64,000 nucleotides of DNA from an uncultured Candidatus Saccharibacteria bacterium (GTDB taxonomy: Bacteria; Patescibacteriota; Saccharimonadia; CAILAD01; BJGX01). The notes beneath the pieces are model-generated. The model was given only the letters and a program-made list of their open reading frames with translations, had not been told where the DNA came from and did not search any database. This document shows, piece by piece, positions 1-27,118 of this stretch (position 1 is its first letter; every line of letters starts with the position of its first letter). Location of the stretch: contig CAZSVP010000002.1 of the NCBI GenBank assembly GCA_964610335.1, positions 14,376-78,375 on the forward strand, given 5' to 3'. The position numbers and the translations under genes were made by a program.

Positions 1-1290
1 CAACACCACCGACATAAACGTTTGTAGCATGTGCTTGCGATCGAGATCGCGTAGATCCACACCATCGAGCGTTACACGCCCAATCGTGGGATCAAAAGCA
101 CGGCACAACATTTTGGCCAGAGTGGACTTACCACCACCGGATGGTCCGACGATAGCCACAAAGGAGCCTGCAGTGATCTTGGCGCTGATCTCGACCAAGG
201 CTGGATCGGTGCACCCTGGATATGTGAATCCGACCCCGTCGATGCAGATCTCGCCTCGTACTTCGCTCTGGTCGAGCTGGATACCTGGTGAGGCATCGAT
301 CTCCGACTTGGTTTCGAACAGCTCGATCAGGTCGTTGAGGCCCTCGATTCCCTCTTGAGCCTCGCGCTGGAAATCGGCATAGCGGTACATGTGAGCGTAC
401 AGCTTAGCCATCCAAGCATTCAACAAGGCGACGTCACCGATGGTAACACTACCGTCGCTATAGGCTTTGAGGGTAATGAGCCACATGCAGAGCAATGACA
501 GATTGAGCACGTTGTTCTGGACTATCCAGTGCCAAATCCTGGCCTTGCGTCGGTCGTCTTCTTGGTCGGCAAAGCCATCAATCATAGCTTGATAGCTGCC
601 CGATCGTGGCTGCTCCAGGCCTTCGTTCTTGATGGTCTCCCAGTCCTTGATCTGCTGACTGCCTTCCTTTTCTGATGCCTTCCACTGCTCATGGGAGGCG
701 CGGCGAACCTTGGCAAAGCGCTTCTCGAAGTGCCGGGTGACCACACAGTAGACCGTAATGGTCACCACCGACAACACTGTATAGCGCCAGTTGATGAGCA
801 AAAGCCCGGTCACGATGAAGCTGATCATCATACACATCGGCACGAAGTGATAAGCCACCGTGTCGATCAGACGATCCACCTTCCAGATAGCTTTGCTCAG
901 CACCGACTCTTTTTCACCAGTGCCGTGCTCGATCTGATAGGCTGGGTCCAAGTTGATCTGATGCTCATGCCCAGCCCCCAAGATATAGACAAGATTGTGC
1001 CAGACCGATGAGATCTGGAAGTACTCGGCTACCTCGGTTACTAGGGTGTGAGCCAAACGCAGGCCAATCATACCCGCCACGAAGACCAGCAAGCTGGTAG
1101 CTGGCTCGTTAGCCAACATACCGTCAAACAGGCCCCGCAGCGGGAAGGGCTCGGCCACGCTAAGAAGCTCACTCAACAACAGCAGGCTGATTGCCAGCAC
1201 GATGTGCCGGCGCAGCTTGCGGTACTTCTGAGCTACCTCAGGCTTGCTCAAGAGCAAGCGATATAGCTTGATCATGGGTTTGATTCCCAT
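1..1290 (-). CDS. ABC transporter, fused permease/ATP-binding protein (exporter type); C-terminal NBD truncated by window start
   Basis: Minus-strand frame open from position 1 to ATG at 1288-1290 with GGAGG 6 nt upstream; translation shows a multi-TM N-terminal domain followed by Walker A GPSGGGKST; absent from ORF track because no stop lies inside window; ~55% GC. Confidence 0.75.
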   Translation of the reverse strand, partial: MGIKPMIKLYRLLLSKPEVAQKYRKLRRHIVLAISLLLLSELLSVAEPFPLRGLFDGMLANEPATSLLVFVAGMIGLRLAHTLVTEVAEYFQISSVWHNLVYILGAGHEHQINLDPAYQIEHGTGEKESVLSKAIWKVDRLIDTVAYHFVPMCMMISFIVTGLLLINWRYTVLSVVTITVYCVVTRHFEKRFAKVRRASHEQWKASEKEGSQQIKDWETIKNEGLEQPRSGSYQAMIDGFADQEDDRRKARIWHWIVQNNVLNLSLLCMWLITLKAYSDGSVTIGDVALLNAWMAKLYAHMYRYADFQREAQEGIEGLNDLIELFETKSEIDASPGIQLDQSEVRGEICIDGVGFTYPGCTDPALVEISAKITAGSFVAIVGPSGGGKSTLAKMLCRAFDPTIGRVTLDGVDLRDLDRKHMLQTFMSVVL

Positions 1291-1364
1291 GTTCCTCCCT
1301 TGGTTGTAGGTATTTCTCTGTGAAAGATCGTGATGTGGTTGCTTTCTGTCAGGCTACTCGCCCA

Positions 1365-1393
1365 ACAAAAAACCCGGGAGATCTGCTCCCGGG
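1365..1393 (-). terminator. GC-rich hairpin CCCGGGAG-ATCTG-CTCCCGGG followed (on minus strand) by UUUUUUGUU; intrinsic terminator or attenuator ~80 nt upstream of ABC exporter start
   Basis: Perfect 8 bp GC stem, 5 nt loop, A-run on plus strand = U-run on minus strand. Confidence 0.5.
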
Positions 1394-1866
1394 AGGTTGA
1401 CTACGAATAATCGCTAGTTATTGGTCAAAATAATTAATTCCGGAAGCATAGTGTACACAAAACTCGCCAACAGCAAGTGCTGGTGTGACACGAAATTTGA
1501 ATTTGTTACTATTATTTGACATAGTGCTAATCAATATACGCGTAAGCATAAGCTATGTCAACACATTCTTGCAAACTTTTTTGTAAATTTGTAATAATTT
1601 GCCGACAAACTAAAAACAATAACTCAATCAGAAAGGTCCTACATGTGTTTGTGATGCGATAACTCGCTAAGTGTTGGCAGCACGCTCATATGTCGTACTC
1701 GCCAATGAAAAACTAGTAGTCGGACCCTTGTGACTGGGTTCTAGTGATAGTATTTAACTGCCATGCTCAAATAAGTTCGCGGAGTTCACTTGAAACATAG
1801 TGGTAACAGGAGTATAGCACAGTTTTAGCACTTTGTCAATAGTCTCTACAGATTAACTGGTGATTA

Positions 1867-3087
1867 TTATCCTATTTCCAGATATGTCTTCATATAATCA
1901 GCTGTCATAGTAGGTAGTAAGAACTTGCGACGTACAAGCTCGCGTGCCTGCATGCGTATCTGCAAGTAATCGTCTGGGCGACGTAGCACATTGACCATCT
2001 TCTCGGCACTTTCAAAAGCGTTTTCTTCTAGGTAAAATCCAGTACGGCCATCGACTACCTGTAGAGCTATACCACCAACAGGGCGGCTAAATACAAACTG
2101 TTTCTTCCATAATGCCTCAGTCACAGTTAGCCCAAAACCCTCACGATGTGAGTTTTGAACAATTGCACCGGCACCAGCCTGTAAAGCATTGATGCTGGTA
2201 TCATCCGCCTCAGTAATAAGCTGAATATGTTCATCAACCAATGCAACCTTACGCTTCACCTTGTCGTAGTATTCTCGTCCTTCAGGATCATCGCTAGCCA
2301 TGTTACCTACTAGCAAGAGCCTATACTGTGGCATAAAGGCCACCAAATCTCGATATATATCAACTACACCAAGTGGGTCCTTGAATCTATCGAAGCGACT
2401 AACCTGTAGTATATATGGATACCGTTCATCAAGCTCAAATTGGGCAAGCTGTTTCTTGATTTGTTCAGGATTCAATGGCTTGTTCTTGTCGCTCAATGGG
2501 TCAATACTAGGGTGTACTATTGCTACTTTATTGTGGTCCAATCCATGAGCATAGTTTTCAAGACTAAATATTACCTTTTGAAAGTATTTGTAATAGCCTT
2601 TGAGCCAATTTAAGCCGCCAGGATTCGCCTCAGTAAGATCAATGTGGCAACGCCAAATTAATCGATCTGGTGGTAAATATGCTGCCAGACCAAGTGTCTG
2701 AGGATCGTGCAGAACATATATATCACCATCGCGTGGTATGTCGCGCGCGGCTTCAGCAAGATAATCGCTATATTGTTTGAGTAACGATTTGTCTGGTAAT
2801 TCACTATGGCCTTGCAAGCAGTTATGTAGTGTCTTGGTGGTATGGAAAAACGCTTCATTGGGTGGTAACACGTGCCACTCAGCCTGCAACCCCATGCCTT
2901 GCAATAGGGCGATTTTGCCACGCAAAAGCTCCGCTACTCCACCACCATAAGAAGTGGCGTTTATCTCAACTATCTTCTTGCCCCTCAAGCTATGAGCCAA
3001 CTGTGCAAGTTCCAGCTGCTGAGATTCATCGATGTACCGTGTGTAGTCATCTATCGTACGTTTATCTAGGTTAGTAACTTGTGACAT
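1867..3087 (-). CDS. Glycosyltransferase family 4 (trehalose synthase TreT-like / GT1-fold retaining transferase)
   Basis: 406 aa; C-terminal EGFGLTVTEALW motif typical of GT4; N-terminal nucleotide-sugar binding half; ~43% GC. Confidence 0.65.
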   Translation of the reverse strand: MSQVTNLDKRTIDDYTRYIDESQQLELAQLAHSLRGKKIVEINATSYGGGVAELLRGKIALLQGMGLQAEWHVLPPNEAFFHTTKTLHNCLQGHSELPDKSLLKQYSDYLAEAARDIPRDGDIYVLHDPQTLGLAAYLPPDRLIWRCHIDLTEANPGGLNWLKGYYKYFQKVIFSLENYAHGLDHNKVAIVHPSIDPLSDKNKPLNPEQIKKQLAQFELDERYPYILQVSRFDRFKDPLGVVDIYRDLVAFMPQYRLLLVGNMASDDPEGREYYDKVKRKVALVDEHIQLITEADDTSINALQAGAGAIVQNSHREGFGLTVTEALWKKQFVFSRPVGGIALQVVDGRTGFYLEENAFESAEKMVNVLRRPDDYLQIRMQARELVRRKFLLPTMTADYMKTYLEIG

Positions 3088-3190
3088 ATAGTACTTATGC
3101 TACCATATTTTGGCTTGAAAGTGCTGGTGATCTAAGCTATACTTGCCCGGATCGATCTGATCAACGTACCTCGACCCATCGGAGGCACTC

Positions 3191-3439
3191 ATGCCACATA
3201 GCTCTACAGCTACACTGGATTGGGACGTTACCAATCCTGCTCGCCATGTCCTGTGGAAGGACGGCAAGTTGCAAGCCGAAGTCTGGCAACGAACTGTCAA
3301 CAACTTGCCAACCAGCTTCTGGCATGGCCGGATCTACTTCGCGGGTGGCAACCTCACGCTCACGGCCAACGAGAATGTCAACCGCGAAGAAGCCAAAGCA
3401 CGAGTCCACGCCGCGCTCGCTGGGCGCGGCCTGATATAG
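3191..3439 (+). CDS. Hypothetical small protein (82 aa), high-GC block
   Basis: ATG preceded by GGAGG at -5..-10; first of three same-strand small ORFs each with a strong SD. Confidence 0.4.
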   Translation: MPHSSTATLDWDVTNPARHVLWKDGKLQAEVWQRTVNNLPTSFWHGRIYFAGGNLTLTANENVNREEAKARVHAALAGRGLI

Positions 3440-3452
3440 GAGGCGGTCAATC

Positions 3453-3668
3453 ATGGCCAAGATGAAAACGTGCCCCAACTGTGGCGGATCCAAGAGTGTG
3501 TCACTACCTGGTGGCGGTAGTGCGGCTTGTAGCACCTGCAAGATCAACGGCCGGTCAACAGGACAAGTGCCCGAAGACGAGGCCAAGGCCTACAAGTCAG
3601 GTGGCAGCACACGCGCCAGCCGGCAGGCAGCCGCCAAAGCTGCCAAGCGCAAAAAGGGTCGGTGGTAA
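3453..3668 (+). CDS. Zinc-ribbon small protein (71 aa), Lys/Ala-rich tail
   Basis: CPNCGG...CSTC two CxxC pairs; GGAGG 9 nt upstream of ATG. Confidence 0.45.
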   Translation: MAKMKTCPNCGGSKSVSLPGGGSAACSTCKINGRSTGQVPEDEAKAYKSGGSTRASRQAAAKAAKRKKGRW

Positions 3669-3871
3669 CCATGGTTCTACTGTGGGAAGAACCACCGTAC
3701 ACAGGTGAGCCATGTTCTACCTGTGGCGGCCCGCATTCACACTGCCGAAGTGAGATCGATGGCCAACCCAACCCTCACCTGCCCACCTGTCCCTACCGAC
3801 CCTGGGCCGGAGCGCCGTACCTCGACGATCACTTCGTACCGCCAGCCTGTAACTGTCGTGACCGTCGCTAG
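3662..3871 (+). CDS. Cys-rich small protein (69 aa; alternative ATG at 3671)
   Basis: CSTCGG...C...C...CNC cysteine pattern; overlaps stop of previous ORF (translational coupling). Confidence 0.35.
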   Translation: MVTMVLLWEEPPYTGEPCSTCGGPHSHCRSEIDGQPNPHLPTCPYRPWAGAPYLDDHFVPPACNCRDRR

Positions 3872-3951
3872 TGCTGGAGACAGTCAACCCGGGCTCTTCA
3901 TCTATCAAAGGTGAGGAGCTCGGCTTTGTTATAATCATAAACTCAAATATA

Positions 3952-3980
3952 TTGACAAGTTCTTATGCTTGTTGTAGAAT
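3952..3980 (+). promoter_or_regulatory. Sigma70-like promoter TTGACA-17 nt-TAGAAT
   Basis: Consensus -35 TTGACA at 3952-3957, 17 nt spacer, -10 TAGAAT at 3975-3980. Confidence 0.55.
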
Positions 3981-3986
3981 CGTAAA

Positions 3987-4150
3987 TTGTATGAATCAAT
4001 ATAGCCTAACAACCATGAATATAGCTGACCAATCCTTTGTCACAGACAAAGGCCAGCTTGTGATTGCTTTTAGGCTCACTATTGATTTTTGATGATCTCC
4101 ACCAAGTTTATTTGAATGTCACAGTGAGCCTCCGAAACGGAGGCGTTTTT
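3987..4150 (+). ncRNA. Candidate ~165 nt small RNA (or leaderless 32-aa peptide transcript) bounded by promoter and intrinsic terminator GCCTCCG-AAA-CGGAGGC-GUUUUU
   Basis: Promoter at 3952-3980; terminator hairpin 4128-4144 + T-run 4145-4150; internal hairpin CCTTTG-TCACAGA-CAAAGG; no convincing RBS-led ORF. Confidence 0.3.
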
Positions 4151-4267
4151 GATTCAAACGAACTTAACCAAGGTTACAATATCCAATTCGGAGGCTTATT
4201 GGGCCACTCAAAGAAGCCCCTAGGTTTTGCATGCGGCAAAATTTAGCAACCTACAGGAGGATAGCCC

Positions 4268-4933
4268 ATGTTTGGGTTTCCGATGCGCATCACTCTCGAC
4301 GACGGTCGCATGATACTAATGCGCCCAATTGTTGAAGACGAGATGCCAGCAGTTGCAGAACAGATCTCACGCTATGAGATCTGTCGACACATCAGCTTAC
4401 GAGGCTCACAAAGCCCTGAGCAGGAGCTGGCTTGGCTCAAGAGCACCCAAGAACGCGACGATGCCTTCAACTGGGGTATTGCCCTGCCCGAGAGCAAAGA
4501 CGACACTCATGGTCGACTGATCGGCAACAGCGGCGTGTTCGATATCAGCTGCAATCGTGGCGAGAGTGGCGTGGTGTTGTGGGACAGCTCTGTCTGGGGC
4601 ACTGGCATAGCCAGCGCCATCCATCGAGCTCGCTGCCACTATGCTGTCAACGTTCATCACTTGGTAGCAATCGACAGTGGTGCCGACCAGGCTAACCACG
4701 GTAGCCGTAAGGCGCTGGAGCGCGTTGGTTACACCAAGGTGGGAGTTAGCTACAATCGAGGCTACGTCGACGGTGAGATCTGTCACCTAGACAAGCTGCT
4801 TTGGGTCAACCCCACTTCGCATGTCTGGAACTACTTCTGGGGAGGAGAACCTGCGCCCAAGAAGTTCCAGACAGCTCGCAAGCGAGCGATCGCTGCGCTT
4901 GATTGGGCAGCAGAGCGCATCGAGTACCTGTAG
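4268..4933 (+). CDS. GNAT family N-acetyltransferase (RimJ/RimL-like)
   Basis: 221 aa; RBS CAGGAGGA upstream; acetyltransferase fold signature; ~58% GC. Confidence 0.55.
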   Translation: MFGFPMRITLDDGRMILMRPIVEDEMPAVAEQISRYEICRHISLRGSQSPEQELAWLKSTQERDDAFNWGIALPESKDDTHGRLIGNSGVFDISCNRGESGVVLWDSSVWGTGIASAIHRARCHYAVNVHHLVAIDSGADQANHGSRKALERVGYTKVGVSYNRGYVDGEICHLDKLLWVNPTSHVWNYFWGGEPAPKKFQTARKRAIAALDWAAERIEYL

Positions 4934-4980
4934 GGATATGGGTAGTGTGCGAACGCGGCACACTACCCTACACCCTCCAA

Positions 4981-6378
4981 CTATTTGGCAGCTCGCCAAT
5001 AAAGTGTCTGGCTACCAATATCTTCTGTTTCTATACCTACCAGCATTAATTTATTACGGATGCTGTCGGCAGTACCATAATCCTTGTTTTCACGTGCCTT
5101 GTGGCGCTGTTCAAACAAATGTCTCTCATCTGCCGTAAAACTAACTTGTTTTTGCACCAAGTCGATACCAAATACCTGATCGGCCCAAGCGATAGCTTCT
5201 ACGGCGCCGGCCAACAACGGCACCGATTCTAGCTTGCTAAGAGCAGCCAGTGCTTGTGGAGAGCCAAAGTCATCGCGCAATGCTTGTGTGACTTGCAGTT
5301 TAAACTCTTCAACTACTAGTGCATCATGCTTTTGGGGAATGCCAAGCTGTTCAGCAGCTTGATTGCGAGCAACATAGTTACGCAAAGAATTCAATCTATT
5401 CTGGGCAGCAGCTAAATTATCCCAACTAAACTGTGCCTCTGTGCGGTAGTGTGACTCAAGTGCAAGTAGTCGGAACGCTAACAAATCAATCTTGCGCTCT
5501 TCTATGTTTTCTAGTGTGAAGAAGTTGCCAGCCGACTTAGCCATTTTCTTACCATCAACTAGTATAAAGTTGCTATGTAGCCAATAGTTTGCCAAAGGTT
5601 TGCCGGTAGCAGCTTCACTCTGCGCTATTTCATCATTGTGGTGAACAGCAATATGATCAATACCACCAGCGTGGATATCTAAGGTATCACCTAAGTACTT
5701 CATACTCATAGCGCTACACTCGAGATGCCAACCTGGGAACCCCTTGCCCCATGGGCTATCCCACTCCATGTCACGCTGTGAGTCTTGGGGGCTAAATTTC
5801 CAGAGTGCAAAATCTGTGTGACTACGCTTCTGTGGGTTGGCTTCCACCCTAGCTCCAGCTTTCAAGCCCTCAATGTCAATGTTACCGAGCTTGCCGTAGC
5901 CTTCAAATTTACTGGTATCAAAATATACTCCATCATCGATCACATAGGTAAACCCTTTAGACTCCAACTCCTCTACTAGTTTGATCTGCTCAGGAATATG
6001 GGCAGTAGCTCGAGGTAAGTGTTGAGGCTGTGAAATATTGAGCCTATCAAAGCCTGCCTCAAAGTAGTCGGTGTACTTCTGGGCAATCTCCCAGGCGGTA
6101 GCGCTCTCACGTTTGGCCCCTTTCTCAAGCTTGTCCTCGCCTGCATCCGCGTCAGAGGTGAGATGCCCTACATCGGTGATGTTCATAACCCACTCTACAT
6201 CATAGTCATTTGCTTTGAGCACACGATTGAAAAGGTCGTAGCGGATAAACGTAAACCAATTACCAATGTGGGGAAAGTCGTACACCGTCGGCCCGCAGCT
6301 ATAAAATGTAACTTTTGGAGGATTGATAGGTACAAAATCTTCTTTTTGGTGTGTAAGCGTATTGTATAGTTTTAACAT
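4981..6378 (-). CDS. cysS: Cysteinyl-tRNA synthetase
   Basis: HIGN (HIGH) and KMAKSAGN (KMSKS) class I motifs, Cys-binding CGPTVYD. Confidence 0.92.
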
Positions 6379-6381
6379 TGG

Positions 6382-6927
6382 CTAGTCCTTTGCAAAATAA
6401 ACTTTTCGTAATACCTCGGCTGTGACTCGACAGTCTTCTAGAGCATCATGATTGCCACGAGGTTTTAGCCCAAAATATTTGAGTGTTGGCTCTAGTCGAA
6501 CTGTGTCACCCTGTCCATGTCGACACAAATGGGTATAAACTATTGGCCAAACATCAAGATAATGATAGTCATAAATAAAAATGTCCTTTTCTATAGTCCA
6601 CAACATTTTATTAAGAAGCCCTCTATCTAGAATTGAGTTCCAAGATGCTGTAAAAATTTCTGTACCAAACTTTTCTAAGAACTCAGTAATAACTTGTTTT
6701 TGATTTGGCGCTCCTTCTAGATCCTGCTGTGTTACGCCAGAGACTCTCAGTGCCTCCTCGCTAGCCTTGCTTAAATCGGCCTCTATATAACTCGTAAACT
6801 GATCTTTTTCCTTCAGAGACGTTTTGTCGAGTAAAACTGCACCAAGTTGTGTTGGTTCTGCAAATCTAGCATCCAAGCCCGTGCTTTCAAAATCAAGTAT
6901 TAAAATATCTTTGGCAAATCCATTCAT
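6382..6927 (-). CDS. DEDDh 3'-5' exonuclease (DnaQ-like)
   Basis: Exo I DFESTGLD, Exo III HDALEDC motifs. Confidence 0.65.
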   Translation of the reverse strand: MNGFAKDILILDFESTGLDARFAEPTQLGAVLLDKTSLKEKDQFTSYIEADLSKASEEALRVSGVTQQDLEGAPNQKQVITEFLEKFGTEIFTASWNSILDRGLLNKMLWTIEKDIFIYDYHYLDVWPIVYTHLCRHGQGDTVRLEPTLKYFGLKPRGNHDALEDCRVTAEVLRKVYFAKD

Positions 6928-6983
6928 ACATTTAGTATATAGGATTTAGGTGCTTGATGTTAGCTAGCCTCAAAATTAAGGGC

Positions 6984-7583: not shown

Positions 7584-7601
7584 TCCCCCTCCTTTTCTAA
7601 T

Positions 7602-7904
7602 TTACATTCCTGGCAAGCCAAGACCACCTGCGACTTCTTGCATGCGACTAGTGGCTTCTTGCATGATCTCTTTGTTGGCTTTGTTGGCGGCCATAGCTAT
7701 CCAACGGCCCAGCTGATCAGCGTCTTCCATAGCTTCGTCACTAATGTGGATCCGTTCGATTTCCACACTCATGTTGGCTTGGCTAATACTCAAGCCAGCC
7801 TCTACCCGTACAGCACCATCACCTGCTTCAGTTTCTATCTTAAGACGTTTAAGTTCTTTTTGTAGTTTTAGGGCCTTAGCGGCCAATTTGGCTTTGTCTA
7901 GCAT
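7602..7904 (-). CDS. ybaB: Nucleoid-associated protein YbaB/EbfC
   Basis: 100 aa, characteristic VEAGDGAVRVEAGL core, upstream of recR as in most bacteria. Confidence 0.85.
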   Translation of the reverse strand: MLDKAKLAAKALKLQKELKRLKIETEAGDGAVRVEAGLSISQANMSVEIERIHISDEAMEDADQLGRWIAMAANKANKEIMQEATSRMQEVAGGLGLPGM

Positions 7905-7927
7905 TTGATTCTCCTAATTTGGTATGG

Positions 7928-9409: not shown

Positions 9410-9411
9410 CG

Positions 9412-18343: not shown

Positions 18344-18365
18344 AAGAATTATTGCTCATTATACC

Positions 18366-20456
18366 TCAAAATGTTTGCGGACGCTCGATCACATCACGCA
18401 AGACATCGGCGATAGTCTCGGCCATTTGTTCAATTGATACATCAGCTAAGCTGTTTGGATAATACCTTGCAACATGTTCAGTATATGGCCCAATACCAAG
18501 TCCTAGTATTTTTTGATTAGTAGATGAAGTAATGGTCTGTACTACTGTTTTCAAATCGTATTCTGCTCCTCCATGAATAGTGGATGGTGCTGGCTCGCCG
18601 TCTGAAAGCACAATTAAGAATTTTTCGGATTGTCGCTGACGGTCCAACCGCTCTGAAGCTTGTTGGATTGCCCATCCATCGTCGTTCCAGCTTGCATGGT
18701 AGCTTCGCACTTCATCAAGCATCTCACCAAGTGACTCTTGTTGACTTTTTTCTATGCGTCGACCGAACGGCTTAAATTCATGAAGTACTTCATTGAATCC
18801 TAAGATCTCCATATTTATACCGAGTCGGTTTAGTACTTCGGCGAGTACTACCACCGCCTTAAAGGTTTCGTTAATTTTTGCACCATTCATTGAGCCTGAC
18901 AAATCAACGAGTAGTGAGATAGCGTAGTCCTTCTCACTTGGCAGCTCGCGACGTTCCCAAGAGCGTGATTCGACAGCACTGATACCCTGAGCTTTTTCTT
19001 GCATACGTTTGCTAATATTGATCCGCCGTCCGGTATTATACCCTGTTGTATAGCGGTGTTGGCTGCGTGCCACAAAGATAGCCCGCAAGTCTTGCTCTAA
19101 ACTGTTGATGATTGGAGCAAGATCATGACGAATCTCCTCGTAAGCATTCTGACCTTCATATATGCCCTCCAGAGCTGACTTGAAATCTGTCATTACCGGA
19201 GACGGTTCGGGCGGCCTTACAGGTGAAGTTGGCGGTTCATCTGGGGTATCATTGAGGGATGGTGTTGCTGCTACTGGTAGCTCGGGCGCATCTACTGGTT
19301 CTGGAAGATCTGGTAATGGCGTAGAATCATCTTGTGAATCACCCACCCAACTACCGAGCTTGTCGGCTAACTCGCCGGCTAAATCTTCGAGTTCCTTGGC
19401 AGCCTGTTCGCGAGCAGCTTGTTTTTGCTCATCAGTTAATTCTGGCGGCGACTCTGGAGATTTGGGCTGATTTGATCCTGGTGCAGGAGTAGGGGGTTGT
19501 TCAGGTTCATTTGGCTCGCCTGTGTCTGATGATCCCTCGGGGGGAGATGGCATGTCCAGTCCAGACCCACCAGCTTCCTCATCCATATTTTGCTGCATTT
19601 GTTCTTGTAGTTGTTCAGCCCGATCTTCTACATCAGCTTCGTAGAGCGGTAGCAGATGCGGCCAGATCTGTTCTTCCATGATTCTGAGACTCAGTTCCGA
19701 GTATTTCATAATCTCGTCTTCACCACTATCAGCCTCAGCGCGGGAAGGATAAGTCCACCAGGCCTCTTGCGCTGCATCCAAACAAGCGTCCACTGCCTCA
19801 CGTACATCGTCTGGCAAGCCTTCACTAAGCTCCATTTCCTTCTCAGCCTCATCGCGACTCCACTGCTTGATCAGCTCAAAACCCGCCTGTACAAACCGTG
19901 GGGTTTGACGATCACCACTCTTCTCCTTGGCCCACTGCTCGATCTGCATATCTTGCTGATAAGCATAAACCATATCACCACGCATGGCTGGATAACTATC
20001 AGCCAAAAAGTTGTTAACTCGAGGATCTTCAACACAATTGACCATAAACATAAAGCCTGGCTGTTGGATTGTCTCTTTCATAGACTCAGGGATCCGAGTA
20101 ATCCGCCGGTGTGAGCCTTCGTGTGCTATCACAAATTTGAGGTAAGAATCCTCCTTCTCAAGTAAGTCTACTGGATCAGCAAATATCTCATTATCGCGAA
20201 AATTCCAGTACCAGCCCGCGCCTGGTTTGCTAGCCTTTACTGGAATTTTAAAATCCTTACCAATAAACTTGGCAATGGCTGACAACTCGCGCAACTTACG
20301 TTTGACCTGTTTTCTCTGCTTTTTATCGAGTTCGATAGCCTTGGCTTCAGTCGCCTCGGCATCAATTGGCTCTGAAGTAGGCCCAACACTTTCAGTAGGA
20401 GCCGACTCCGGATCAGGATTATCAGCGACGTTATACAAACGCTCTTGTTCTGGCAT
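18366..20456 (-). CDS. VWA-domain protein with N-terminal HExxH metallopeptidase-like domain (DUF2201-like) and ~200 aa acidic Pro/Glu-rich linker
   Basis: VIAHEGSHRR (HExxH); MIDAS DLSGSM...; T ... SDGEP in C-terminal VWA; low-complexity PEPS-rich middle. Confidence 0.7.
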   Translation of the reverse strand: MPEQERLYNVADNPDPESAPTESVGPTSEPIDAEATEAKAIELDKKQRKQVKRKLRELSAIAKFIGKDFKIPVKASKPGAGWYWNFRDNEIFADPVDLLEKEDSYLKFVIAHEGSHRRITRIPESMKETIQQPGFMFMVNCVEDPRVNNFLADSYPAMRGDMVYAYQQDMQIEQWAKEKSGDRQTPRFVQAGFELIKQWSRDEAEKEMELSEGLPDDVREAVDACLDAAQEAWWTYPSRAEADSGEDEIMKYSELSLRIMEEQIWPHLLPLYEADVEDRAEQLQEQMQQNMDEEAGGSGLDMPSPPEGSSDTGEPNEPEQPPTPAPGSNQPKSPESPPELTDEQKQAAREQAAKELEDLAGELADKLGSWVGDSQDDSTPLPDLPEPVDAPELPVAATPSLNDTPDEPPTSPVRPPEPSPVMTDFKSALEGIYEGQNAYEEIRHDLAPIINSLEQDLRAIFVARSQHRYTTGYNTGRRINISKRMQEKAQGISAVESRSWERRELPSEKDYAISLLVDLSGSMNGAKINETFKAVVVLAEVLNRLGINMEILGFNEVLHEFKPFGRRIEKSQQESLGEMLDEVRSYHASWNDDGWAIQQASERLDRQRQSEKFLIVLSDGEPAPSTIHGGAEYDLKTVVQTITSSTNQKILGLGIGPYTEHVARYYPNSLADVSIEQMAETIADVLRDVIERPQTF

Positions 20457-20549: not shown

Positions 20550-21014
20550 TTATTGGAGTTCTACAGTAGCACCAGCTTCTTCAAGCTTCTTCTGAGCTTC
20601 CTCGGCTTCTTCTTTCTTCACTTTTTCTTTTACCATCTTAGGAGCACCATCTACTAGGGCTTTGCTTTCAGCAAGTCCAAGCCCGGTGATCTCGCGTACG
20701 GCCTTGATCACGTCGATCTTCTTCTCACCAGCACCGGCTAGGAAGATGTTGTATTCACTCTTCTCTTCGGCGGCTTCGGCAGCTTCGCCGCCACCACCAA
20801 CTGCAGCCACAGCCACAGGAGCAGCAGCGCTTACACCAAAGTGATCTTCCAGTACTTTAACTAGCTCAGCAAGATCAAGTACGCTTAGTTTTTCAATCTC
20901 ACTTACCAAGTCTTTGAACTTGGCAGGAACTTCTTTTTTCTCTTCGGTCTTCTCGGCAGTAGCCTCAGCTACTTCTTCTTTTACTTCTTCTGGTTTTGTA
21001 GTTTCTTCAGCCAT
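20550..21014 (-). CDS. rplL: 50S ribosomal protein L7/L12 with ~30 aa acidic N-terminal extension
   Basis: Conserved CTD ...[27 protein letters not shown]... Confidence 0.9.
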
Positions 21015-21017
21015 GAT

Positions 21018-21548
21018 TTAAGCATCTCCTTTGGACTCACCGATGGCATTGAGCGCATACAGTAGTCCGGTTATATTTCCATTCAATACTCGTACAAATC
21101 CACTTAATGGTGCAGCAATTGTGCCGACCAGAGTAGCGGTAAGTTGCTCGCGACTTGGTAGCTTGGCGAGGGCGGCTACTTGCTCTGTGGTTAGTATGGT
21201 GCCAGCCTCATCAATAGCACCGACTATTTCTAGTGCGTCGTGAGATTTAGCAAACTCATATACCAACTTGGCAGTAGATGCCTCGTCATCACCAAAGGCG
21301 ATTGCCATAGGTCCTTCAAACAAGCTCATATCTAAGTCCTTGAGCTTGGTTTGGCTGAGCGCAACTCGTACGAGAGTGTTTTTTGCTACCTTGTAGCTAA
21401 CGCCTGCTTCACGCAATTTGGCACGTAACTCGGTGACGCTCGCGACATTGAGTCCACGATAGTCAGTAAGCACGGCAATCTTGCTAGTCGAAAAGGCATC
21501 GGCCAAAGCAGCTACATCTTGCTCTTTCTGAGAGCGTGATTTTGCCAT
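21018..21548 (-). CDS. rplJ: 50S ribosomal protein L10
   Basis: Start ATG 21548 (MAKSRSQ) with GGAGTG SD; track ORF extends further upstream in frame. Confidence 0.9.
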   Translation of the reverse strand: MAKSRSQKEQDVAALADAFSTSKIAVLTDYRGLNVASVTELRAKLREAGVSYKVAKNTLVRVALSQTKLKDLDMSLFEGPMAIAFGDDEASTAKLVYEFAKSHDALEIVGAIDEAGTILTTEQVAALAKLPSREQLTATLVGTIAAPLSGFVRVLNGNITGLLYALNAIGESKGDA

Positions 21549-21748
21549 ATACACTCCGTTATGGTTAGTTAATGTTCTGTAATTACCAAACAAAAAATCT
21601 TTGGAATTCTCCAAAGACCTCGTGTCCAACAATCATTTGATTGTCACCTCATGTAGCAAATTAAGTCGTTTGACTGCTACAGTCTTTGGTAATTGAGCAT
21701 ATTCTAACAGATTGCCACCTGGTTAGTCAATAGTTAGCATAACGAACT

Positions 21749-21780
21749 CGGGAGGAGACTACCGAAATAGTCTCCTCCCG
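21749..21780. promoter_or_regulatory. Perfect 13 bp-stem hairpin CGGGAGGAGACTA-CCGAAA-TAGTCTCCTCCCG in rplJ leader / 3' of inserted small gene
   Basis: Seen directly; lies between stop of small high-GC ORF and rplJ. Confidence 0.45.
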
Positions 21781-21808
21781 CATTGTCAGCCAGGCATCAT
21801 CTCAACGC

Positions 21809-22126
21809 CTAGCCGACTCGTTCCTTCCGCCGCCGAGGCCCATCGACATCCACCATCTCCCACTCGCCGTCTTCGAAGTTGAAGCGAACGATCTGGTTGT
21901 GGAGCGGTGCTGGCCCTCGATACGCGATCATTGGCCGGCTGCCCAACGGTCGTCCCACACCACCACAGCCCTTCTCAGGACAGAACAGATGGTGAACGAT
22001 CTCGCCGCCCTTGCGACCTGTCAGTGTCACTGGCGACCCCCACAGCTTTGTCTCATGGCCAGTCTGATCTGGGCACACGAGATATCGCAACATGTGAGTC
22101 TGCGGCACGTTCTTACGATGAGGCAT
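21809..22126 (-). CDS. Small high-GC protein (105 aa), possible zinc-binding (CP...H..., HH..CPEKGCGG)
   Basis: ATG 22126 with GGGAGGA SD; ~62% GC island. Confidence 0.45.
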   Translation of the reverse strand: MPHRKNVPQTHMLRYLVCPDQTGHETKLWGSPVTLTGRKGGEIVHHLFCPEKGCGGVGRPLGSRPMIAYRGPAPLHNQIVRFNFEDGEWEMVDVDGPRRRKERVG

Positions 22127-22261
22127 AGTCCTCCCTTGGACGCTATACTGATAGAAACAAAAAAGACCACAGTGAAGCCACTTGGTATTCACTTTTGGTC
22201 CCCGCCACCTAGTAGATGGATCTAGAGTATATCAATGATTATCAGATCGGTCAAGATAGGA

Positions 22262-22888
22262 TTAATACAATTCTACTGGCAATTCCCAGCCTGAAGTATC
22301 TAGCTGTGTTAGATCTATCTTAATATCTATCTCAGTAGGAAGCTCATTGTCCACACCCACTGCTTCTTCCAAATCTCCCTCAACATTTAGCAAATAATGG
22401 CGTCGAGCTCTCTCCAGTGATTGTATGGCTTGATCAGTACCCATTGGTAATACAAATGGTTTGCCATCCCTGTTTAATACTCGATGCTGGTAGTCATACA
22501 TACGAATTAGCTCTTCGGGGATAATCTTGCGCAATATGCGCATACTGTGGTCGTTGGCTATTGCAGCCACCATATCTGTTGCTCCTTGAGATTTTGCGAA
22601 AGCGATCCCTGCTTTGAGTAATCTCTCGCCTATACCACTGTTTCGCAAAGCAGGGTTGACCTTCAACATACCAGGATTGTATGCACGCCTACCATCTTTT
22701 TCGTGCTCGATCCACCCTTCAAGCGTGTTGCTTGCCGGTAGCCGTAGTGATACCAACTCAAAATATTTGGTCTTTTCAGTTTCAACCTGTGGACTTGCAG
22801 TCCTTACGAGCTCAAGTGTTTTGGGAACACTATCTATATCAGACTTGCTTGAATCACCTTTGGTTTCGGTTGGTTTAGGCTCGATCAT
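22262..22888 (-). CDS. GNAT family acetyltransferase with C-terminal extension
   Basis: NPALRNSGIGERLL acetyl-CoA binding motif; overlaps glyA stop. Confidence 0.55.
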   Translation of the reverse strand: MIEPKPTETKGDSSKSDIDSVPKTLELVRTASPQVETEKTKYFELVSLRLPASNTLEGWIEHEKDGRRAYNPGMLKVNPALRNSGIGERLLKAGIAFAKSQGATDMVAAIANDHSMRILRKIIPEELIRMYDYQHRVLNRDGKPFVLPMGTDQAIQSLERARRHYLLNVEGDLEEAVGVDNELPTEIDIKIDLTQLDTSGWELPVELY

Positions 22889-24125
22889 AATACCATTGGA
22901 GTGACTTGGCTATTTCGCTTAGCTGGGACGAAGAATTATAGTTAGAGCTCAGCACGATATTGGCCACAGCGTTTCCAAGCTGTTTGGATTGGTCTGCATC
23001 TAGGCCTCGGCTAGTAAGTGCAGCTGTGCCAAGCCGCAAACCGCCTGGCCTCCAGGGTGATTTAGTATCCTCAGGTATAGCATTGCGGTTAGTAATAACA
23101 CCAAGTGATTCAAGTTTGTTTTGCACTTCCAGGCTGTCTACTTCATCTGGTAGTTTGACGAGTGTAAGATGGGTTTCGGTTGACGACACTATGTCTAACC
23201 CACCCTCTACTAAGCCTTGTTCCAGTGCCCGACAGTTGGCTATTACTTGTTTTGAGTATTCTTGAAAAGATCGATTGTCGGGGTAAGTATCTTCACCCAA
23301 CACTTCTAGCAAGGCTTGGCCTGTAGCCGCGATTTGATTGAGATGTGGCCCACCCGAGGTACCTGGAAATACAGTTTGATTGAGCGACTTGAGATACTCT
23401 TGTTTGGCAAATACCATAGCAGCTCGCGGACCTCGCAAAGTTTTGTGGGTTGTAGTGGTAACAAAGTCTGCTCCTTGGGCGTGAGATTTAAAAGGACTGT
23501 CGTGTAACCCAGCTGCAATTAACCCCGCTATGTGAGCAATATCAGCCAGTACCAAGCAGCCATAGCTGTGAGCGATCTCACATAGTTTGGCAAATTCATA
23601 CTTGCGCGGATAAGCTGAAAAGCCAATTACTACCAAACGCGGCTGAGTAGTTTTTACCTTATCTTCAAAATCATCGTAGCCAATTTCATAGCCATTTGGC
23701 CCAGCTGCTACTGAGTAAGTATCGTGTTTGAAGAACTTCAAGTAACTACTAGTGGCATGCAAATGGCTCAAGTGCCCACCGCTACTCAGCTCTAGGCTTA
23801 ACACTGTGTCACCGGGCTCTAAGACCGTGAAGTACACCATGGCATTGGCCGGACTACCAGAAAGCACTTGCACATTGACGCCATACTCAGCCGTCTTATC
23901 AAATACTTCCAAAGCTTTTTGTTGCACAAACTCTTCGAGCTCATCGGTATGTACATTGCCAGCATAGTAGCGCTTGCCCGGGTAGCCCTCGGCATACTTG
24001 GTACTCCAAACCGAGCCAAGCAGACCGAGCACCTGTGGGCTAGGATAGTTTTCGGAAGCAATGAGATTGAGGCTGTCGCGCTGCCGAGCGAATTCTTTGG
24101 CAGTAAGATCTTCAATGAAATTCAT
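22875..24125 (-). CDS. glyA: Serine hydroxymethyltransferase
   Basis: PLP-Lys motif TTTTHKTLRGPR, 416 aa. Confidence 0.92.
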   Translation of the reverse strand: MNFIEDLTAKEFARQRDSLNLIASENYPSPQVLGLLGSVWSTKYAEGYPGKRYYAGNVHTDELEEFVQQKALEVFDKTAEYGVNVQVLSGSPANAMVYFTVLEPGDTVLSLELSSGGHLSHLHATSSYLKFFKHDTYSVAAGPNGYEIGYDDFEDKVKTTQPRLVVIGFSAYPRKYEFAKLCEIAHSYGCLVLADIAHIAGLIAAGLHDSPFKSHAQGADFVTTTTHKTLRGPRAAMVFAKQEYLKSLNQTVFPGTSGGPHLNQIAATGQALLEVLGEDTYPDNRSFQEYSKQVIANCRALEQGLVEGGLDIVSSTETHLTLVKLPDEVDSLEVQNKLESLGVITNRNAIPEDTKSPWRPGGLRLGTAALTSRGLDADQSKQLGNAVANIVLSSNYNSSSQLSEIAKSLQWYYDRA

Positions 24126-24150
24126 ATGGATAATTATACATCATAACGAG

Positions 24151-24186
24151 AGTGAGCCCGAGGGATGGTAGTCCCTCGGGCTCACT
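24151..24186 (-). terminator. 15 bp perfect GC-rich stem-loop AGTGAGCCCGAGGGA-TGGTAG-TCCCTCGGGCTCACT downstream of thyX
   Basis: Seen directly; weak U-run so could be stabiliser/processing hairpin rather than terminator. Confidence 0.4.
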
Positions 24187-24294
24187 TGAGACAGGCTGCG
24201 GCGAAAAGCCTATCTCGGGTCACACCCTCGAGTACTAGGACCCGAGGATGTGTCTGAGGTGGTCTGACAGGGCGAAGGCCAGTACACCTCAGGA

Positions 24295-26094
24295 TCAGGC
24301 CGTCAGTTCCGCCAACTTGGCCAACTTCTCGGCCGTGGCGGTCTCGCTGGCCATGCGTGTCAGCTCGCCGAGCGTGTCCTGCTGGTTCACGAAGCACATC
24401 GCCTTGGCACTGATCGGATAGACACTCTGCACCTCATCGAACATGAGGTTGCACAGCTTGCGGTAGCCAGGATGGCCTTGCGGTCCGGTGCGCAATTCCA
24501 GCAAGTGGAACAGCTCACGCAGACTGGTGATGAACCGGTAGCGCATGCGATAGCCCATGCACAAGGCGTACTGAGCCTCGTGCTTGTGACCGCCGCCGAA
24601 CATGTCGTTGTACAGCTCACTGGACAACTCGAAGGCTCGACGGTAGTTGGCCTCTTGCCCGGCCTCCGCCACCAACTCCGGTACCTCGTAGCCGAGATAC
24701 GGCGTGAGCGCCGGCCACTCCCACGCACTCACCATGCGATGTCGCTGCAGGTCGCGGAAGGTGCCGTAGTCGCCAACCAGCTCCCAGTCGAAGGTGGCCT
24801 CCTCGGCAGCTCGCCCCGGCCGATGGCGCCGGTTGAGGCGCTGGCCGAAGTAGAGCTGCATGAGCTGACGCTGCTTCTTGCGCGGCAGCTTGGCGACCAA
24901 CTTGCGCAGCTTGGTCATGGAGCGACCATCCACGGCGTAGAGCATGCCAGCGCACAGCTCGCGTTCGTCGCGCGGCTGGTAGTTCAGCAATGTCACCGCC
25001 GCTTCGCCCTTCTTGCTCGACTTGTCTGGCGGCAGCTCACGGAGAGCGAACTCACGCAGGCCAGCGCGGGTCTCGGCCAAGTAGTTGACGGTCATGAGCC
25101 CACGGTCCGGCTTGTCGGTCCGCTCCAGGAACTCTGGGATCACCTTGCGAGCCTCACGCAACAGCGCGGCACCCATGGCCCGGGCCTCGGGCAGCTCACG
25201 CGACAACAGCCGCATGATCAGCGCATCGAGTGCCTGAGCCGACATGGTGATGCCCACAGTCGAACGGGTTCCGACTGGCAGGATGGCGCGGGCGGCATCG
25301 CAGGCCTGAGCTCGCACCGCTCCCGGCCAGCCAGCATGCTTGGCCGGCTCCGTCGTCTTGTCCGGCCGCGGGTTGGTGAGCTTGACGTGCTCGGTGACCT
25401 CGCGCACTACCGTGGAGTAGAGATCGAAAATCTCGTCCATGGTGGACTCGTAGTACTTGAGCATGTCGGGGTCGAGCCCCGGCCGCAGGTACTTGTAGCG
25501 ACCATCAGTCTTGGTGTCGAAGTAGATGTAACGGGTGGACTGCTCGAGATACGCCGCAGCCACCCGACCCCACTCCAACTCCTTGGTCATGAGATTGCTC
25601 ACACCTTCGCAGACGAACATCACTGTGATGAGCTGCTGCACCGAATCGTCACCGAACTCGGTAACCACACGATTGATCAGCGCCGCCGCCTCTTCGGTTC
25701 GCATGCGCCCGGCGGTGAGGTCGGTGATGGCCTGGCGAAGCGTCTTCAACGCCTGTTCACACATCGGCGTGGCATCGAAGTCACCGTCGAAGAAGTTCTC
25801 CAGCGAACGAACAGCAGAAAGCAGCTCATGCTTGCGCAGTTTGGTGAGCACGGCAGCGTCCTGCACGCCAGCGAACTCCTCGAGGATGGTGACACGCAGA
25901 TCACCATCGCGTCGGCTGAGCCGAGCCATGGCAGCGGCCACCACCACGATGTTGGCCTGAGCGGTGAAGAAGTAGACCGGCCCAGTCGGATCGGTCACGA
26001 TCTCGCTCAGGTAGCGGATGCCGCGCTTTGTCGGCACCTTCTGTCCCTTGTAGATCCGGATGTACGGGTTTCTCTCTTGCAGTTTGGCGGGCAT
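24295..26094 (-). CDS. thyX: Flavin-dependent thymidylate synthase ThyX-like (Thy1 family), long ~600 aa form
   Basis: FVCEGVSNLMTKELEWGRVAAAYLEQSTRYI aligns to ThyX FxxEGVSRxxTHELVRHRxASYxxQSQRY core; second RHR (LQRHRMVS) later; ~63% GC. Confidence 0.6.
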   Translation of the reverse strand: MPAKLQERNPYIRIYKGQKVPTKRGIRYLSEIVTDPTGPVYFFTAQANIVVVAAAMARLSRRDGDLRVTILEEFAGVQDAAVLTKLRKHELLSAVRSLENFFDGDFDATPMCEQALKTLRQAITDLTAGRMRTEEAAALINRVVTEFGDDSVQQLITVMFVCEGVSNLMTKELEWGRVAAAYLEQSTRYIYFDTKTDGRYKYLRPGLDPDMLKYYESTMDEIFDLYSTVVREVTEHVKLTNPRPDKTTEPAKHAGWPGAVRAQACDAARAILPVGTRSTVGITMSAQALDALIMRLLSRELPEARAMGAALLREARKVIPEFLERTDKPDRGLMTVNYLAETRAGLREFALRELPPDKSSKKGEAAVTLLNYQPRDERELCAGMLYAVDGRSMTKLRKLVAKLPRKKQRQLMQLYFGQRLNRRHRPGRAAEEATFDWELVGDYGTFRDLQRHRMVSAWEWPALTPYLGYEVPELVAEAGQEANYRRAFELSSELYNDMFGGGHKHEAQYALCMGYRMRYRFITSLRELFHLLELRTGPQGHPGYRKLCNLMFDEVQSVYPISAKAMCFVNQQDTLGELTRMASETATAEKLAKLAELTA

Positions 26095-26117
26095 GCACCT
26101 CTCCTTTTGTTTTTGCC

Positions 26118-26387
26118 CTATTGGGGGCGCGGTTGGTCTCGATACACCGCATCGATTGCGGCATCGACTTCTGTTTGCACCTGCTCAAAGGCTGGTCGGA
26201 GCAAGTGATCGATCAGTTTCTCGCGAAACGTGGCCATATCACCTTCCTCCAACACTACCTCGACCTCAGGCTTGTGATGCGGGTGGCCGGTGTCGCGTGT
26301 AAGCATGCGTGTAGCACGCCGATACGCTTGCCACTTGCCACTCGCTTGGTCGTAACGGATATTCAGATCCAGAATAGGCGCACTCAC
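26118..26387 (-). CDS. Hypothetical protein (89 aa) between tmk and thyX
   Basis: High-GC ORF, same strand, fills gap in operon. Confidence 0.35.
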   Translation of the reverse strand: MSAPILDLNIRYDQASGKWQAYRRATRMLTRDTGHPHHKPEVEVVLEEGDMATFREKLIDHLLRPAFEQVQTEVDAAIDAVYRDQPRPQ

Positions 26388-26398
26388 GCTGCCCCCTT

Positions 26399-27034
26399 TC
26401 AGGCAAGCAAAGGCTCAATATGAGCCAAGATGGATCGTTCGACTTCTTCCACACTGCCGCGACCATCGATGAACACGAATTGGCCAGGCAACCCCTTGGT
26501 AGCCTCGACACGGAAGCCCTCGACGAGTCTAGTATGGAATTCTTCTTTCTCCTGCTCGAAACGGTCGAGCTCGCCGCCTCGTGCGCTGACACGAGCCATC
26601 GAATCAGCAAGGTCGACATCCAGCACAAAGATGCGATGAGGGAACAACTCGTTTACCACCAAGCTGCAGACTGAGCGCACATAGTCGGCGCCGAGCCCAC
26701 GGGCATGGCCTTGGTAGACACAGTTGCTGACATAGCTGCGATCGGAGACCACTGGTCGTCCTGATTGCAGCGCTGGCAACACCACCTCGTGCAGATGCTG
26801 AACGCGATCGGCATTGAACAACAGCACTTCGGCCATGGGCTCGAGTTCGCCGGTAGCTGGATCGAGCAAGATCTGTCGAACCATACCGCCAAGCGGTGTG
26901 CCACCTGGCTCACGAGTCAGCACAGCGCCAATTCGATCGGCGAGGAGTCGGGCTTGCGTGGACTTGCCACAACCCTCGACACCCTCGAATGCAATGTAGA
27001 GCGGTTGGGGCACAGCCCTCACCTCCTTTGTCAA
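26399..27034 (-). CDS. tmk: Thymidylate kinase
   Basis: LYIAFEGVEGCGKSTQ P-loop, DRY-like motif; ~63% GC. Confidence 0.85.
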   Translation of the reverse strand: MTKEVRAVPQPLYIAFEGVEGCGKSTQARLLADRIGAVLTREPGGTPLGGMVRQILLDPATGELEPMAEVLLFNADRVQHLHEVVLPALQSGRPVVSDRSYVSNCVYQGHARGLGADYVRSVCSLVVNELFPHRIFVLDVDLADSMARVSARGGELDRFEQEKEEFHTRLVEGFRVEATKGLPGQFVFIDGRGSVEEVERSILAHIEPLLA

Positions 27035-27118
27035 AGGTCGGAAACTTTCCGCCTCTAAGTCAGGATTAAGTATAGAGTACTAGACAACAAGTAAAAAGTG
27101 TAAGTAGTAATAAATACT

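Follow-up and report, generated by a model that had tools for sequence, protein, structure and literature searches.

The window analysed here, a 64-kb stretch of contig CAZSVP010000002.1 whose own positions are used throughout, is on its gene order and relatives that of a Saccharibacterium with a ~45% GC backbone. Five islands of higher GC interrupt this backbone, and the most extreme of them holds thyX, encoding a long flavin-dependent thymidylate synthase. With confidence only a little above even, we interpret the islands as alleles, together with a few accessory genes, that arrived in several separate entries by flank-guided homologous replacement, the source pool being higher-GC Saccharibacteria of the same family. 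A preliminary description of the window had proposed repeated acquisition from a high-GC donor; the repetition stands, in the form of allelic replacement, and a high-GC source holds for thyX and is plausible for the other patches. The island genes are listed below, with their GC and the GC at third codon positions (GC3); lengths are in amino acids (aa).

1–1290, minus strand: island 1, ABC exporter, fused permease and ATPase, allele A (Pfam ABC_membrane and ABC_tran; GC 0.546, GC3 0.70, z 6.5)
3191–3439, plus strand: island 2a, orf82, small conserved protein, called in all sister strains (GC 0.578, GC3 0.66)
3453–3668, plus strand: island 2a, orf71, small CxxC...CxxC zinc-ribbon-like protein with a Lys/Arg/Ala tail (GC 0.602, GC3 0.64)
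3662–3871, plus strand: island 2a, orf69, candidate Cys-rich open reading frame (ORF) of uncertain coding status, from the ORF listing and not called in sister strains
4268–4933, plus strand: island 2b, GNAT (RimJ/RimL-type) acetyltransferase, accessory/mobile (Pfam Acetyltransf_3, E 2e-16; GC 0.563, GC3 0.64)
21809–22126, minus strand: island 3, small Cys-containing protein upstream of rplJ, ~105 aa from an internal ATG, hypervariable (GC 0.57–0.62, GC3 0.68)
24295–26094, minus strand: island 4, thyX, 599 aa with two Thy1 stretches (Pfam Thy1, E 9e-38; GC 0.627, GC3 0.815, z 9.2)
26118–26387, minus strand: island 4, orf89, small protein between tmk and thyX (GC 0.563, GC3 0.59)
26399–27013, minus strand: island 4, tmk, dTMP kinase, 204 aa, with 27013 as the most likely start (Pfam Thymidylate_kin, E 1e-41; GC 0.579, GC3 0.61)

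Whole-window GC is 0.460, and it is 0.447 outside the four segments that the preliminary description had singled out, namely 1–1395 (GC 0.543), 3095–4950 (0.538), 21790–22200 (0.567) and 24150–27060 (0.607). Their coordinates and the direction of the difference were right, but the percentages given for them were 1–5 points too high. A 500-bp profile is raised at 1–1500, 3000–5000 and ~21500–22000, and peaks at 0.656 within 24000–27000; from 27 to 64 kb there are no patches comparable to the islands of the first 27 kb. The 54 backbone genes have a GC of 0.452±0.030 and a GC3 of 0.412±0.044 (maximum 0.500), and the GC3 outliers are eight genes in the five islands (all those listed except orf69), with values of 0.59–0.82 (z 4–9 against the 54 backbone genes). 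GC at first and second positions is near normal in the larger patch genes (ABC, GNAT and thyX), so that the excess is one of nucleotide composition and not of amino-acid content. In a 50-bp scan the steps fall at gene ends, as had been claimed: at ~24100–24150 (glyA start), ~27013–27119 (tmk start to dcd stop), ~1250–1300 (ABC 5′ end) and 4933/4981 (GNAT to cysS). Long stop-free but spurious ORFs lie antisense to the patches, again as described, e.g. 24472–26208 on the plus strand (578 aa, opposite thyX), 3161–3586 and 4406–4786 on the minus strand (141 and 126 aa) and 21899–22225 on the plus strand (108 aa). The same steps are present in the independent assemblies L001, L002, L003/L089, L085/L098 and L086/L095, which stem from Logan SRR14932608/9, JGI 3300013121, ERR12320366 and SRR31809888/9. 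With eight outlier genes, and steps recurring in at least five independent assemblies, the patchwork itself is thus borne out.

Two details of the earlier picture require correction. The segment 3095–4950 had been taken as one patch and is in fact two islands, 3150–3900 (orf82/orf71/orf69) and 4268–4933 (GNAT), separated by a spacer with a GC of 0.28–0.48. A GC-rich hairpin had been counted as part of the ABC patch, but it belongs to the conserved backbone that precedes the 5′ end of ABC, within a stretch that is 99% identical to L089:

1373–1393, minus strand: GC-rich terminator-like hairpin, CCCGGGAGCAGATCTCCCGGG followed by a T-run

The islands lie within a conserved gene order. A profile search with the 599-aa ThyX gave 80 genomic loci, of which the best ~56 are from Saccharibacteria (40–51% identity) and the next best from Actinomycetota (Acidimicrobiia, Nitriliruptorales and others; 36–43% identity), and all window proteins were compared with these 80 loci by tblastn. 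The order nusG-rplK-rplA-(tmk)-dcd-(tmk)-thyX-rplJ-rplL-orf179-dnaX-dnaB-...-recR-cysS recurs in ~50 Saccharibacteria loci, and the window has the identical order. This shared order identifies the backbone as saccharibacterial, which agrees with the membership suggested earlier; it also places thyX and tmk in an ancestral slot. Further traits are specific to one family and common to the window, L084, L087, L097, L003/L089, L085/L098 and L086/L095: carotenoid genes beside secE-nusG, glyA after thyX, and TreT with small ORFs and ABC beside cysS. The order of the ABC and orf71/orf82 homologs is kept in L097. Among the relatives the thyX, tmk, ABC and orf82/orf71 slots are always filled, and NUDIX and GNAT vary. 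Most patches are resident genes of odd composition in conserved slots, not new insertions, and only GNAT and a deleted NUDIX gene behave as accessory genes. We also note that in ~50 Saccharibacteria (L004–L059) the dcd-(tmk)-thyX cassette interrupts the otherwise near-universal rplK-rplA-rplJ-rplL cluster, and that rplL is followed in ~50 of them by orf179-dnaX-dnaB (window 20550–30090) and not by rpoBC.

The high-GC loci are subject to repeated allelic replacement. Between otherwise near-identical strains, the alleles of ABC, tmk, orf89 and the small ORF preceding rplJ share only 51–60% identity, and the breakpoints are sharp. The NusG, RplK and RplA proteins are 97–100% identical across strains, yet the L086 alleles of Tmk and orf89 are only 57% and 55% identical in amino acids to those of the window; the tmk-orf89 segment is ~60% identical in nucleotides (nt) to that of L086 and its flanks 85–98%, and the identity beside orf89 is 95–100%. 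A second example is the ABC exporter, which runs off the edge of the window, leaving 430 of its 589 aa. Its nt identity is 93–99% to L095 but only 51–69% to L089, the JGI sister, and L098; these two carry a 593-aa allele B (GC3 0.68), 55% identical in amino acids to allele A. The breakpoint is at ~1250–1300, the gene end, and the adjoining TreT is 92–100% identical. The alleles are incongruent with strain kinship, with A in the window and L095 and B in L089 and L098, when the window backbone is closest to L003/L089. At island 3 the counterpart in L085 is 43–60% identical in nt and ~30% in aa, between flanks of 85–99%, and in thyX tracts of 100% identity to L003 alternate with tracts of 84%. 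The hallmarks of replacement thus hold, with the same slot, conserved flanks, a drop in identity confined to the segment, and a spread of alleles at odds with the strain phylogeny. Comparison of the patch loci with sister genomes, which the preliminary description had suggested, reveals mostly alleles swapped in shared slots, GNAT and NUDIX alone varying in presence.

Sharp breakpoints inside conserved synteny fit flank-guided homologous replacement, and the alleles would enter in this way most plausibly after natural transformation. The immediate source would be a pool of genes common to this lineage and to higher-GC Saccharibacteria of its family; we infer that the immediate donors are higher-GC relatives and that uptake is by competence. 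Saccharibacteria are naturally competent and recombine DNA with homology arms of 0.5–1 kb (PMC10633639). There is no comEC, dprA or recA within the 64-kb window, and competence is known only from cultivated Saccharibacteria (PMC10633639).

Two other segments of the window, neither of them GC-rich, have also been replaced or inserted.

5400–7900, minus strand: backbone-GC mosaic segment with the 5′ half of cysS, RNase T, recR and ybaB, replaced in one sister strain
15886–20456, minus strand: VWA-orf146-AAA_5 (MoxR-like) module (Pfam VWA/CobT_C and AAA_5; GC 0.46–0.48)

The first is 51–89% identical in nt to L089/L090 and 92–98% to L095/L098, with normal or low GC, and on these identities it is a recombination import with no GC signal. 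The second, found between rplL and orf179, is confined to the window and L003 and missing in L085 and in all other Saccharibacteria loci; to judge by this distribution it is a recent insertion at backbone GC, and acquisitions here are therefore not always GC-marked.

The composition of thyX is best accounted for by import. High GC as an intrinsic property of the gene was considered and ruled out: thyX exceeds its flanks by +0.17 in the window, but by a mean of only +0.03 (maximum +0.078) in 52 other Saccharibacteria and by ~0 in Actinomycetota. In the nearest outside lineage, L084, whose ThyX is 70% identical, thyX (0.573) does not stand out from a backbone at ~0.53 GC. In the window clade, each of the four strains pairs a ~0.45 backbone with a sharply bounded NUDIX/tmk/orf89/thyX block at 0.56–0.63. 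Substitutions polarised on the tips leading to the window, L003 and L086, with L085 as outgroup, number 69 GC→AT and 23 AT→GC in thyX (50:10 at third positions), compared with 104:76 in the backbone (65:51 at third positions), and the difference is significant (Fisher p = 0.005 for all positions and 0.0004 for third positions). The GC3 of 0.83 in this comparison is to be set against an implied equilibrium of ≤0.50. The excess of GC→AT changes indicates that thyX is far from equilibrium and decaying toward the backbone, as imported DNA would, and the gene would seem to have come from a higher-GC relative and to be ameliorating at present. Synonymous sites are saturated between the window clade and L084, so the high-GC thyX would have entered a 45% GC genome well after that split yet ahead of the divergence among the four strains. 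The distance of the donor from L084 would be about that of the window backbone, which points to an unsampled higher-GC relative.

By sequence kinship this thyX is of native type. In the ThyX tree the window clade and L084 group with 100% bootstrap, and the Saccharibacteria-type sequences, the window included, are separated from Actinomycetota, also with 100%. The mean distance of the window ThyX is 0.84 to Saccharibacteria and 1.13 to Actinomycetota; the distance between the window and L084 is 0.34 for ThyX and 0.23–0.43 for backbone genes; and the ratio of window-to-Saccharibacteria to within-Saccharibacteria distance is 1.43 for ThyX and 1.4–3.1 for the backbone. ThyX is thus concordant with the backbone in both tree and distances. 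The assignment of the protein is supported by an RHRMVS motif (RHRxxS) and by recognition of the ThyX fold with Foldseek, which matched the AlphaFold2 model (predicted local distance difference test score, pLDDT, 72) to 4fzb, 2cfa and 3gwc at target TM-scores of 0.55–0.66, across ~200-residue modules only. Sequence searches of the PDB, profile included, gave no match for the long ThyX. Proteins of this type (540–600 aa, two Thy1 stretches) occur in both Saccharibacteria and Actinomycetota; in some relatives Tmk and ThyX are fused into a protein of ~800 aa.

Several observations weigh against import from a higher-GC pool. No donor was found. Sampled members of the family have ~40–53% GC and none reaches the ≥60% that a GC3 of 0.82 would imply, and there is no ThyX relative between 68% and 83% identity among 5.8 billion proteins. 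All trees were built by neighbour joining from simple distances and not by maximum likelihood. In island 2 (orf82/orf71 and GNAT) there is no significant amelioration, with a GC→AT to AT→GC flux of 34:28 against 146:144 in the backbone (18:13 against 116:113 at third positions) and an implied equilibrium GC3 of ~0.56, where that of the backbone is 0.40. GC3 is nearly constant among very divergent copies, at 0.68–0.70 in three ABC alleles and 0.64–0.65 in GNAT from two genomes, a constancy more readily explained by an equilibrium particular to each gene than by separate recent imports. A moderate rise in GC is seen in the thyX and tmk of L087 and L088 too.

These points bear on whether a compositional equilibrium specific to each gene is maintained in place, by GC-biased gene conversion or by selection on codons or mRNA, with no need for a higher-GC donor. 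As the explanation of the patches we regard this as unlikely, if far from negligible; for island 2 and ABC in particular a gene- or pool-specific equilibrium, e.g. through GC-biased conversion at recombination hot spots, is a serious rival. The balanced flux of island 2 would follow from it, as would the constancy of GC3 in old, divergent ABC and GNAT copies from genomes of differing GC, and the orf71/orf82 homologs are GC-rich in L097 as well. The patches coincide with recombining loci, as GC-biased conversion would have it, the third-position AT→GC rate in thyX is ~2-fold that of the backbone, and thyX/tmk rise above their flanks in L087, L088 and, slightly (+0.03), across the phylum. However, thyX is nowhere near equilibrium, with a flux of 3:1 over all positions and 5:1 at third ones, and the +0.17 excess of the window thyX is more than twice the maximum of the 52 other Saccharibacteria. 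Recombination elsewhere (RNase T/recR) affects DNA of low or normal GC, GC3 is not raised in ribosomal-protein genes, which makes expression-linked codon selection unlikely, and a GC3 of 0.64–0.82 against 0.41 is an effect far larger than is generally known for GC-biased gene conversion in bacteria.

The preliminary description had favoured the actinobacterial host as donor, and direct repeated transfer of all patches from such a high-GC host into the epibiont we now consider very improbable. Cultivated Saccharibacteria do grow on Actinobacteria (PMC10633639), and the long ThyX family is common to Saccharibacteria and Actinomycetota, with the L087 ThyX nearest to actinobacterial ThyX. But the window ThyX groups with Saccharibacteria and is concordant with the backbone, as described above, the full-length relatives of the ABC exporter are restricted to the window's family and occupy the same slot, and the named relatives of GNAT are annotated as 'Patescibacteria group bacterium'. 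Among groundwater Patescibacteria, moreover, most inferred donors are other Patescibacteria and Actinomycetota are rare donors (PMC12455944). The best-hit taxonomy of thyX, tmk, ABC and GNAT is accordingly mixed, neither uniformly that of the backbone nor uniformly actinobacterial; a host donor fails for thyX, ABC and GNAT and at best survives for tmk, as an old and probable event.

Tmk requires separate treatment. All 11 named matches outside the family are from Actinomycetota (Acidimicrobiales, Ilumatobacter and others) at 48–54% identity, whereas the syntenic Tmks of other Saccharibacteria are 24–41% identical to that of the window, and the distance between the window and L084 Tmks, 1.11, is discordant with that of backbone genes. 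The Tmk of L087, a low-GC genome in which tmk has a GC of 0.485, is at a distance of 0.98 from Actinomycetota and 1.70 from Saccharibacteria, and this low-GC copy rules out compositional attraction as the cause of the likeness. The three-point branch from the window/L084 node to Actinomycetota is 0.54 for Tmk and 0.96 for ThyX, with Tmk evolving ~3-fold faster within Saccharibacteria. Against an actinobacterial ancestry, the three-group Tmk tree is unrooted, and its 97% split shows merely that the actinobacterial sequences form one clan; saccharibacterial Tmks have a mean distance of 1.67, and even the L025 and L084 copies are more distant from one another than from Actinomycetota. On balance Tmk is probably of old actinobacterial (Acidimicrobiia-like) ancestry, and we infer that the exchange predates the split of several lineages of the family and was followed by circulation inside it. 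An identity of ~50% does not indicate recent transfer and L087 carries the same allele family at low GC, so actinobacterial origin does not explain the present high GC of tmk.

Delivery by a phage, plasmid or other mobile element, as auxiliary nucleotide-metabolism genes or an accessory GNAT, seems more improbable still. It is true that thyX, tmk, dcd and NUDIX are of a kind typical among the auxiliary genes of phages, and that the context of GNAT differs between genomes, with many small hypothetical ORFs beside it in L100. The best phage matches to ThyX are 23–26% identical, however, and scans of viral contigs gave nothing for Tmk and a 35-residue match alone for GNAT. No integrase, tRNA gene or flanking direct repeats are found at any patch border; the tRNA genes of the window are all at 46–49 kb and the ORFs next to the patches are housekeeping genes or small hypotheticals. 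The genes also occupy conserved chromosomal slots. An assembly or binning chimera, with foreign high-GC reads joined into a Saccharibacteria contig, we can practically dismiss: the contig is metagenome-assembled and chimeric joins can give sharp composition steps, but the same junctions and steps are found in independent assemblies from different samples and pipelines, and the patch genes follow the phylum-conserved order.

The features that adjoin island 4 are:

22875–24125, minus strand: glyA (serine hydroxymethyltransferase, SHMT), right flank of island 4 (Pfam SHMT; GC 0.474)
24151–24186, no strand: perfect 15-bp GC-rich inverted repeat, right edge of island 4, just downstream of thyX
27007–27040, minus strand: NUDIX deletion scar, GGAGGTGAGGGCTGTGCCCCA, shared with the start of the L003 NUDIX (6604–7110)
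27119–27928, minus strand: dcd, dCTP deaminase-like, left flank of island 4 (Pfam DCD; GC 0.472)

Next to the inverted repeat, GC falls to 0.28 (24100–24150, at the glyA start). dcd is syntenic in ~47 Saccharibacteria loci. L003, L085 and L087 share glyA with the window, but other Saccharibacteria do not have it in the corresponding position, making it a family-specific addition to the cassette. A 168-aa NUDIX gene (GC3 0.69–0.73) is present in L003 and L085 and missing in the window, L001, L002 and L086; the tmk start in the window uses the ribosome-binding site and start context of the sister-strain NUDIX, and to judge from this scar NUDIX is precisely deleted in the window lineage. On its predicted functions, island 4 is part of a coherent dTMP cassette of dcd, NUDIX (lost here), tmk, thyX and glyA, and allele replacement within it would swap predicted isofunctional enzymes and add no functions. 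orf89 has no family match in Pfam or PADLOC, and in L084 and L087 it is missing and tmk abuts thyX.

The same slot in L087 (~40% GC, with a backbone that matches L084 in its closeness to the window) is occupied by a 597-aa ThyX (L087 9126–10919) only 37% identical to that of the window. It is nearest to actinobacterial ThyX, at a distance of 0.87–0.98 as opposed to 1.30. With an actinobacterial-type Tmk in the window and an actinobacterial-type ThyX in L087, the cassette would have received genes of this type more than once. A bolder proposal, which we consider rather doubtful, is that dcd-NUDIX-tmk-thyX-glyA is a dedicated hot spot of xenologous replacement, with swaps among epibionts and Actinomycetota hosts, selection by host nucleotide pools or defence, and a GC-biased process, over and above donor composition, that keeps the alleles GC-rich. 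We note that the L087 dcd is of a different type from the window dcd, and that L084 has two tandem dcd genes (7429–9276), the extra dcd1 (GC3 0.74) being the more divergent copy.

Among the other islands, orf82 and orf71 have homologs in L097 that are 38% and 42% identical, the former in the same position, with a GC of 0.55 and 0.63, and the L097 ABC gene in the same slot is 51% identical with a GC3 of 0.70. A promoter-like site lies near orf82 at 3115–3143, and a strong terminator (15-bp stem and T-run, 3889–3923) follows orf69; orf71 has no family match in Pfam or PADLOC. GNAT is missing from the corresponding slot in L097 and has a 65% identical homolog in L100, in a different context and again in a high-GC island (GC 0.566, GC3 0.649; backbone ~0.45). 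The candidate small-RNA locus of the preliminary description lies in the spacer, at 3952–4144 (plus strand), with a near-consensus promoter (TTGACA-17-TAGAAT) and a terminator-like hairpin ~150 nt downstream; it has no Rfam match at the gathering threshold. The island 3 ORF is immediately upstream of the L10 leader (Rfam, 21583–21707) and rplJ. The small high-GC ORFs (3453–3871 and 21809–22126, with L097 6739–6933 and L085 13927–14244) have Cys/Gly motifs of the CxxC / CxxCxGxG-like type in common and in some cases Lys/Arg-rich tails; their position is conserved and their sequence hypervariable, and none has a Pfam or PADLOC family match. A role of the small ORFs, orf89 or the VWA/AAA5 module as defence systems was considered and rejected on PADLOC, which gave no match apart from a weak one to NUDIX. 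Elsewhere in the window, a carotenoid-type cluster (crtI, GGPPS, crtB) with a UbiA-GT2 fusion is located at 30339–37535 beside secE-nusG, at backbone GC; it is family-specific (L084, L085, L086, L087) and absent from other Saccharibacteria loci.

The processes invoked here, recombination mosaicism and amelioration, are known ones, well documented here in a Saccharibacterium. In the concept of Lawrence and Ochman, acquired genes of atypical composition ameliorate toward that of the recipient. Two features conform to it, the GC3 outliers with their steps at gene ends and, in thyX, a significant excess of GC→AT over AT→GC changes, but the patches mostly replace resident genes in slots, and island 2 is without clear amelioration. 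Classical genomic islands are likewise atypical in composition and sharply bounded, but the patch borders here have no mobility genes, tRNA genes or direct repeats. Mosaic loci arise by homologous recombination in competent bacteria, e.g. at pneumococcal or neisserial loci, and the 51–60% alleles among strains, the sharp breakpoints in conserved flanks and the tracts in thyX are much alike; the incoming alleles in the window differ strongly in GC, however, and are thereby visible by composition.

Exchange within Patescibacteria offers the closest comparison in terms of lineage, and thymidylate synthase is among the genes received by groundwater Patescibacteria (PMC12455944). The ThyX, ABC and GNAT relatives of the window match the pattern of Patescibacteria donors in that study, which differs in concerning thyA at the level of metagenome-assembled genomes, whereas the events here are at strain level and affect thyX/tmk in a conserved cassette; a further difference is the actinobacterial-type xenologs found here (Tmk in the window, ThyX in L087).

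Of local interest is the thymidylate cassette, which lies within the ribosomal-protein cluster and acts as a hot spot of replacement with actinobacterial-type xenologs. That thyX is the GC-richest gene and yet native in type, and that the VWA/AAA5 module is recent and yet invisible by GC, means that neither GC steps nor best hits alone prove transfer from host to epibiont. The wider implication is that the genome of an ultra-small epibiont may change more by replacement of resident, even essential, genes with divergent alleles than by gene gain, the replacement alleles being drawn from relatives and occasionally from the host phylum. If the actinobacterial-type ancestry of Tmk here and of ThyX in L087 is true, the dTMP pathway would be a concrete site for studying gene flow between host and epibiont.

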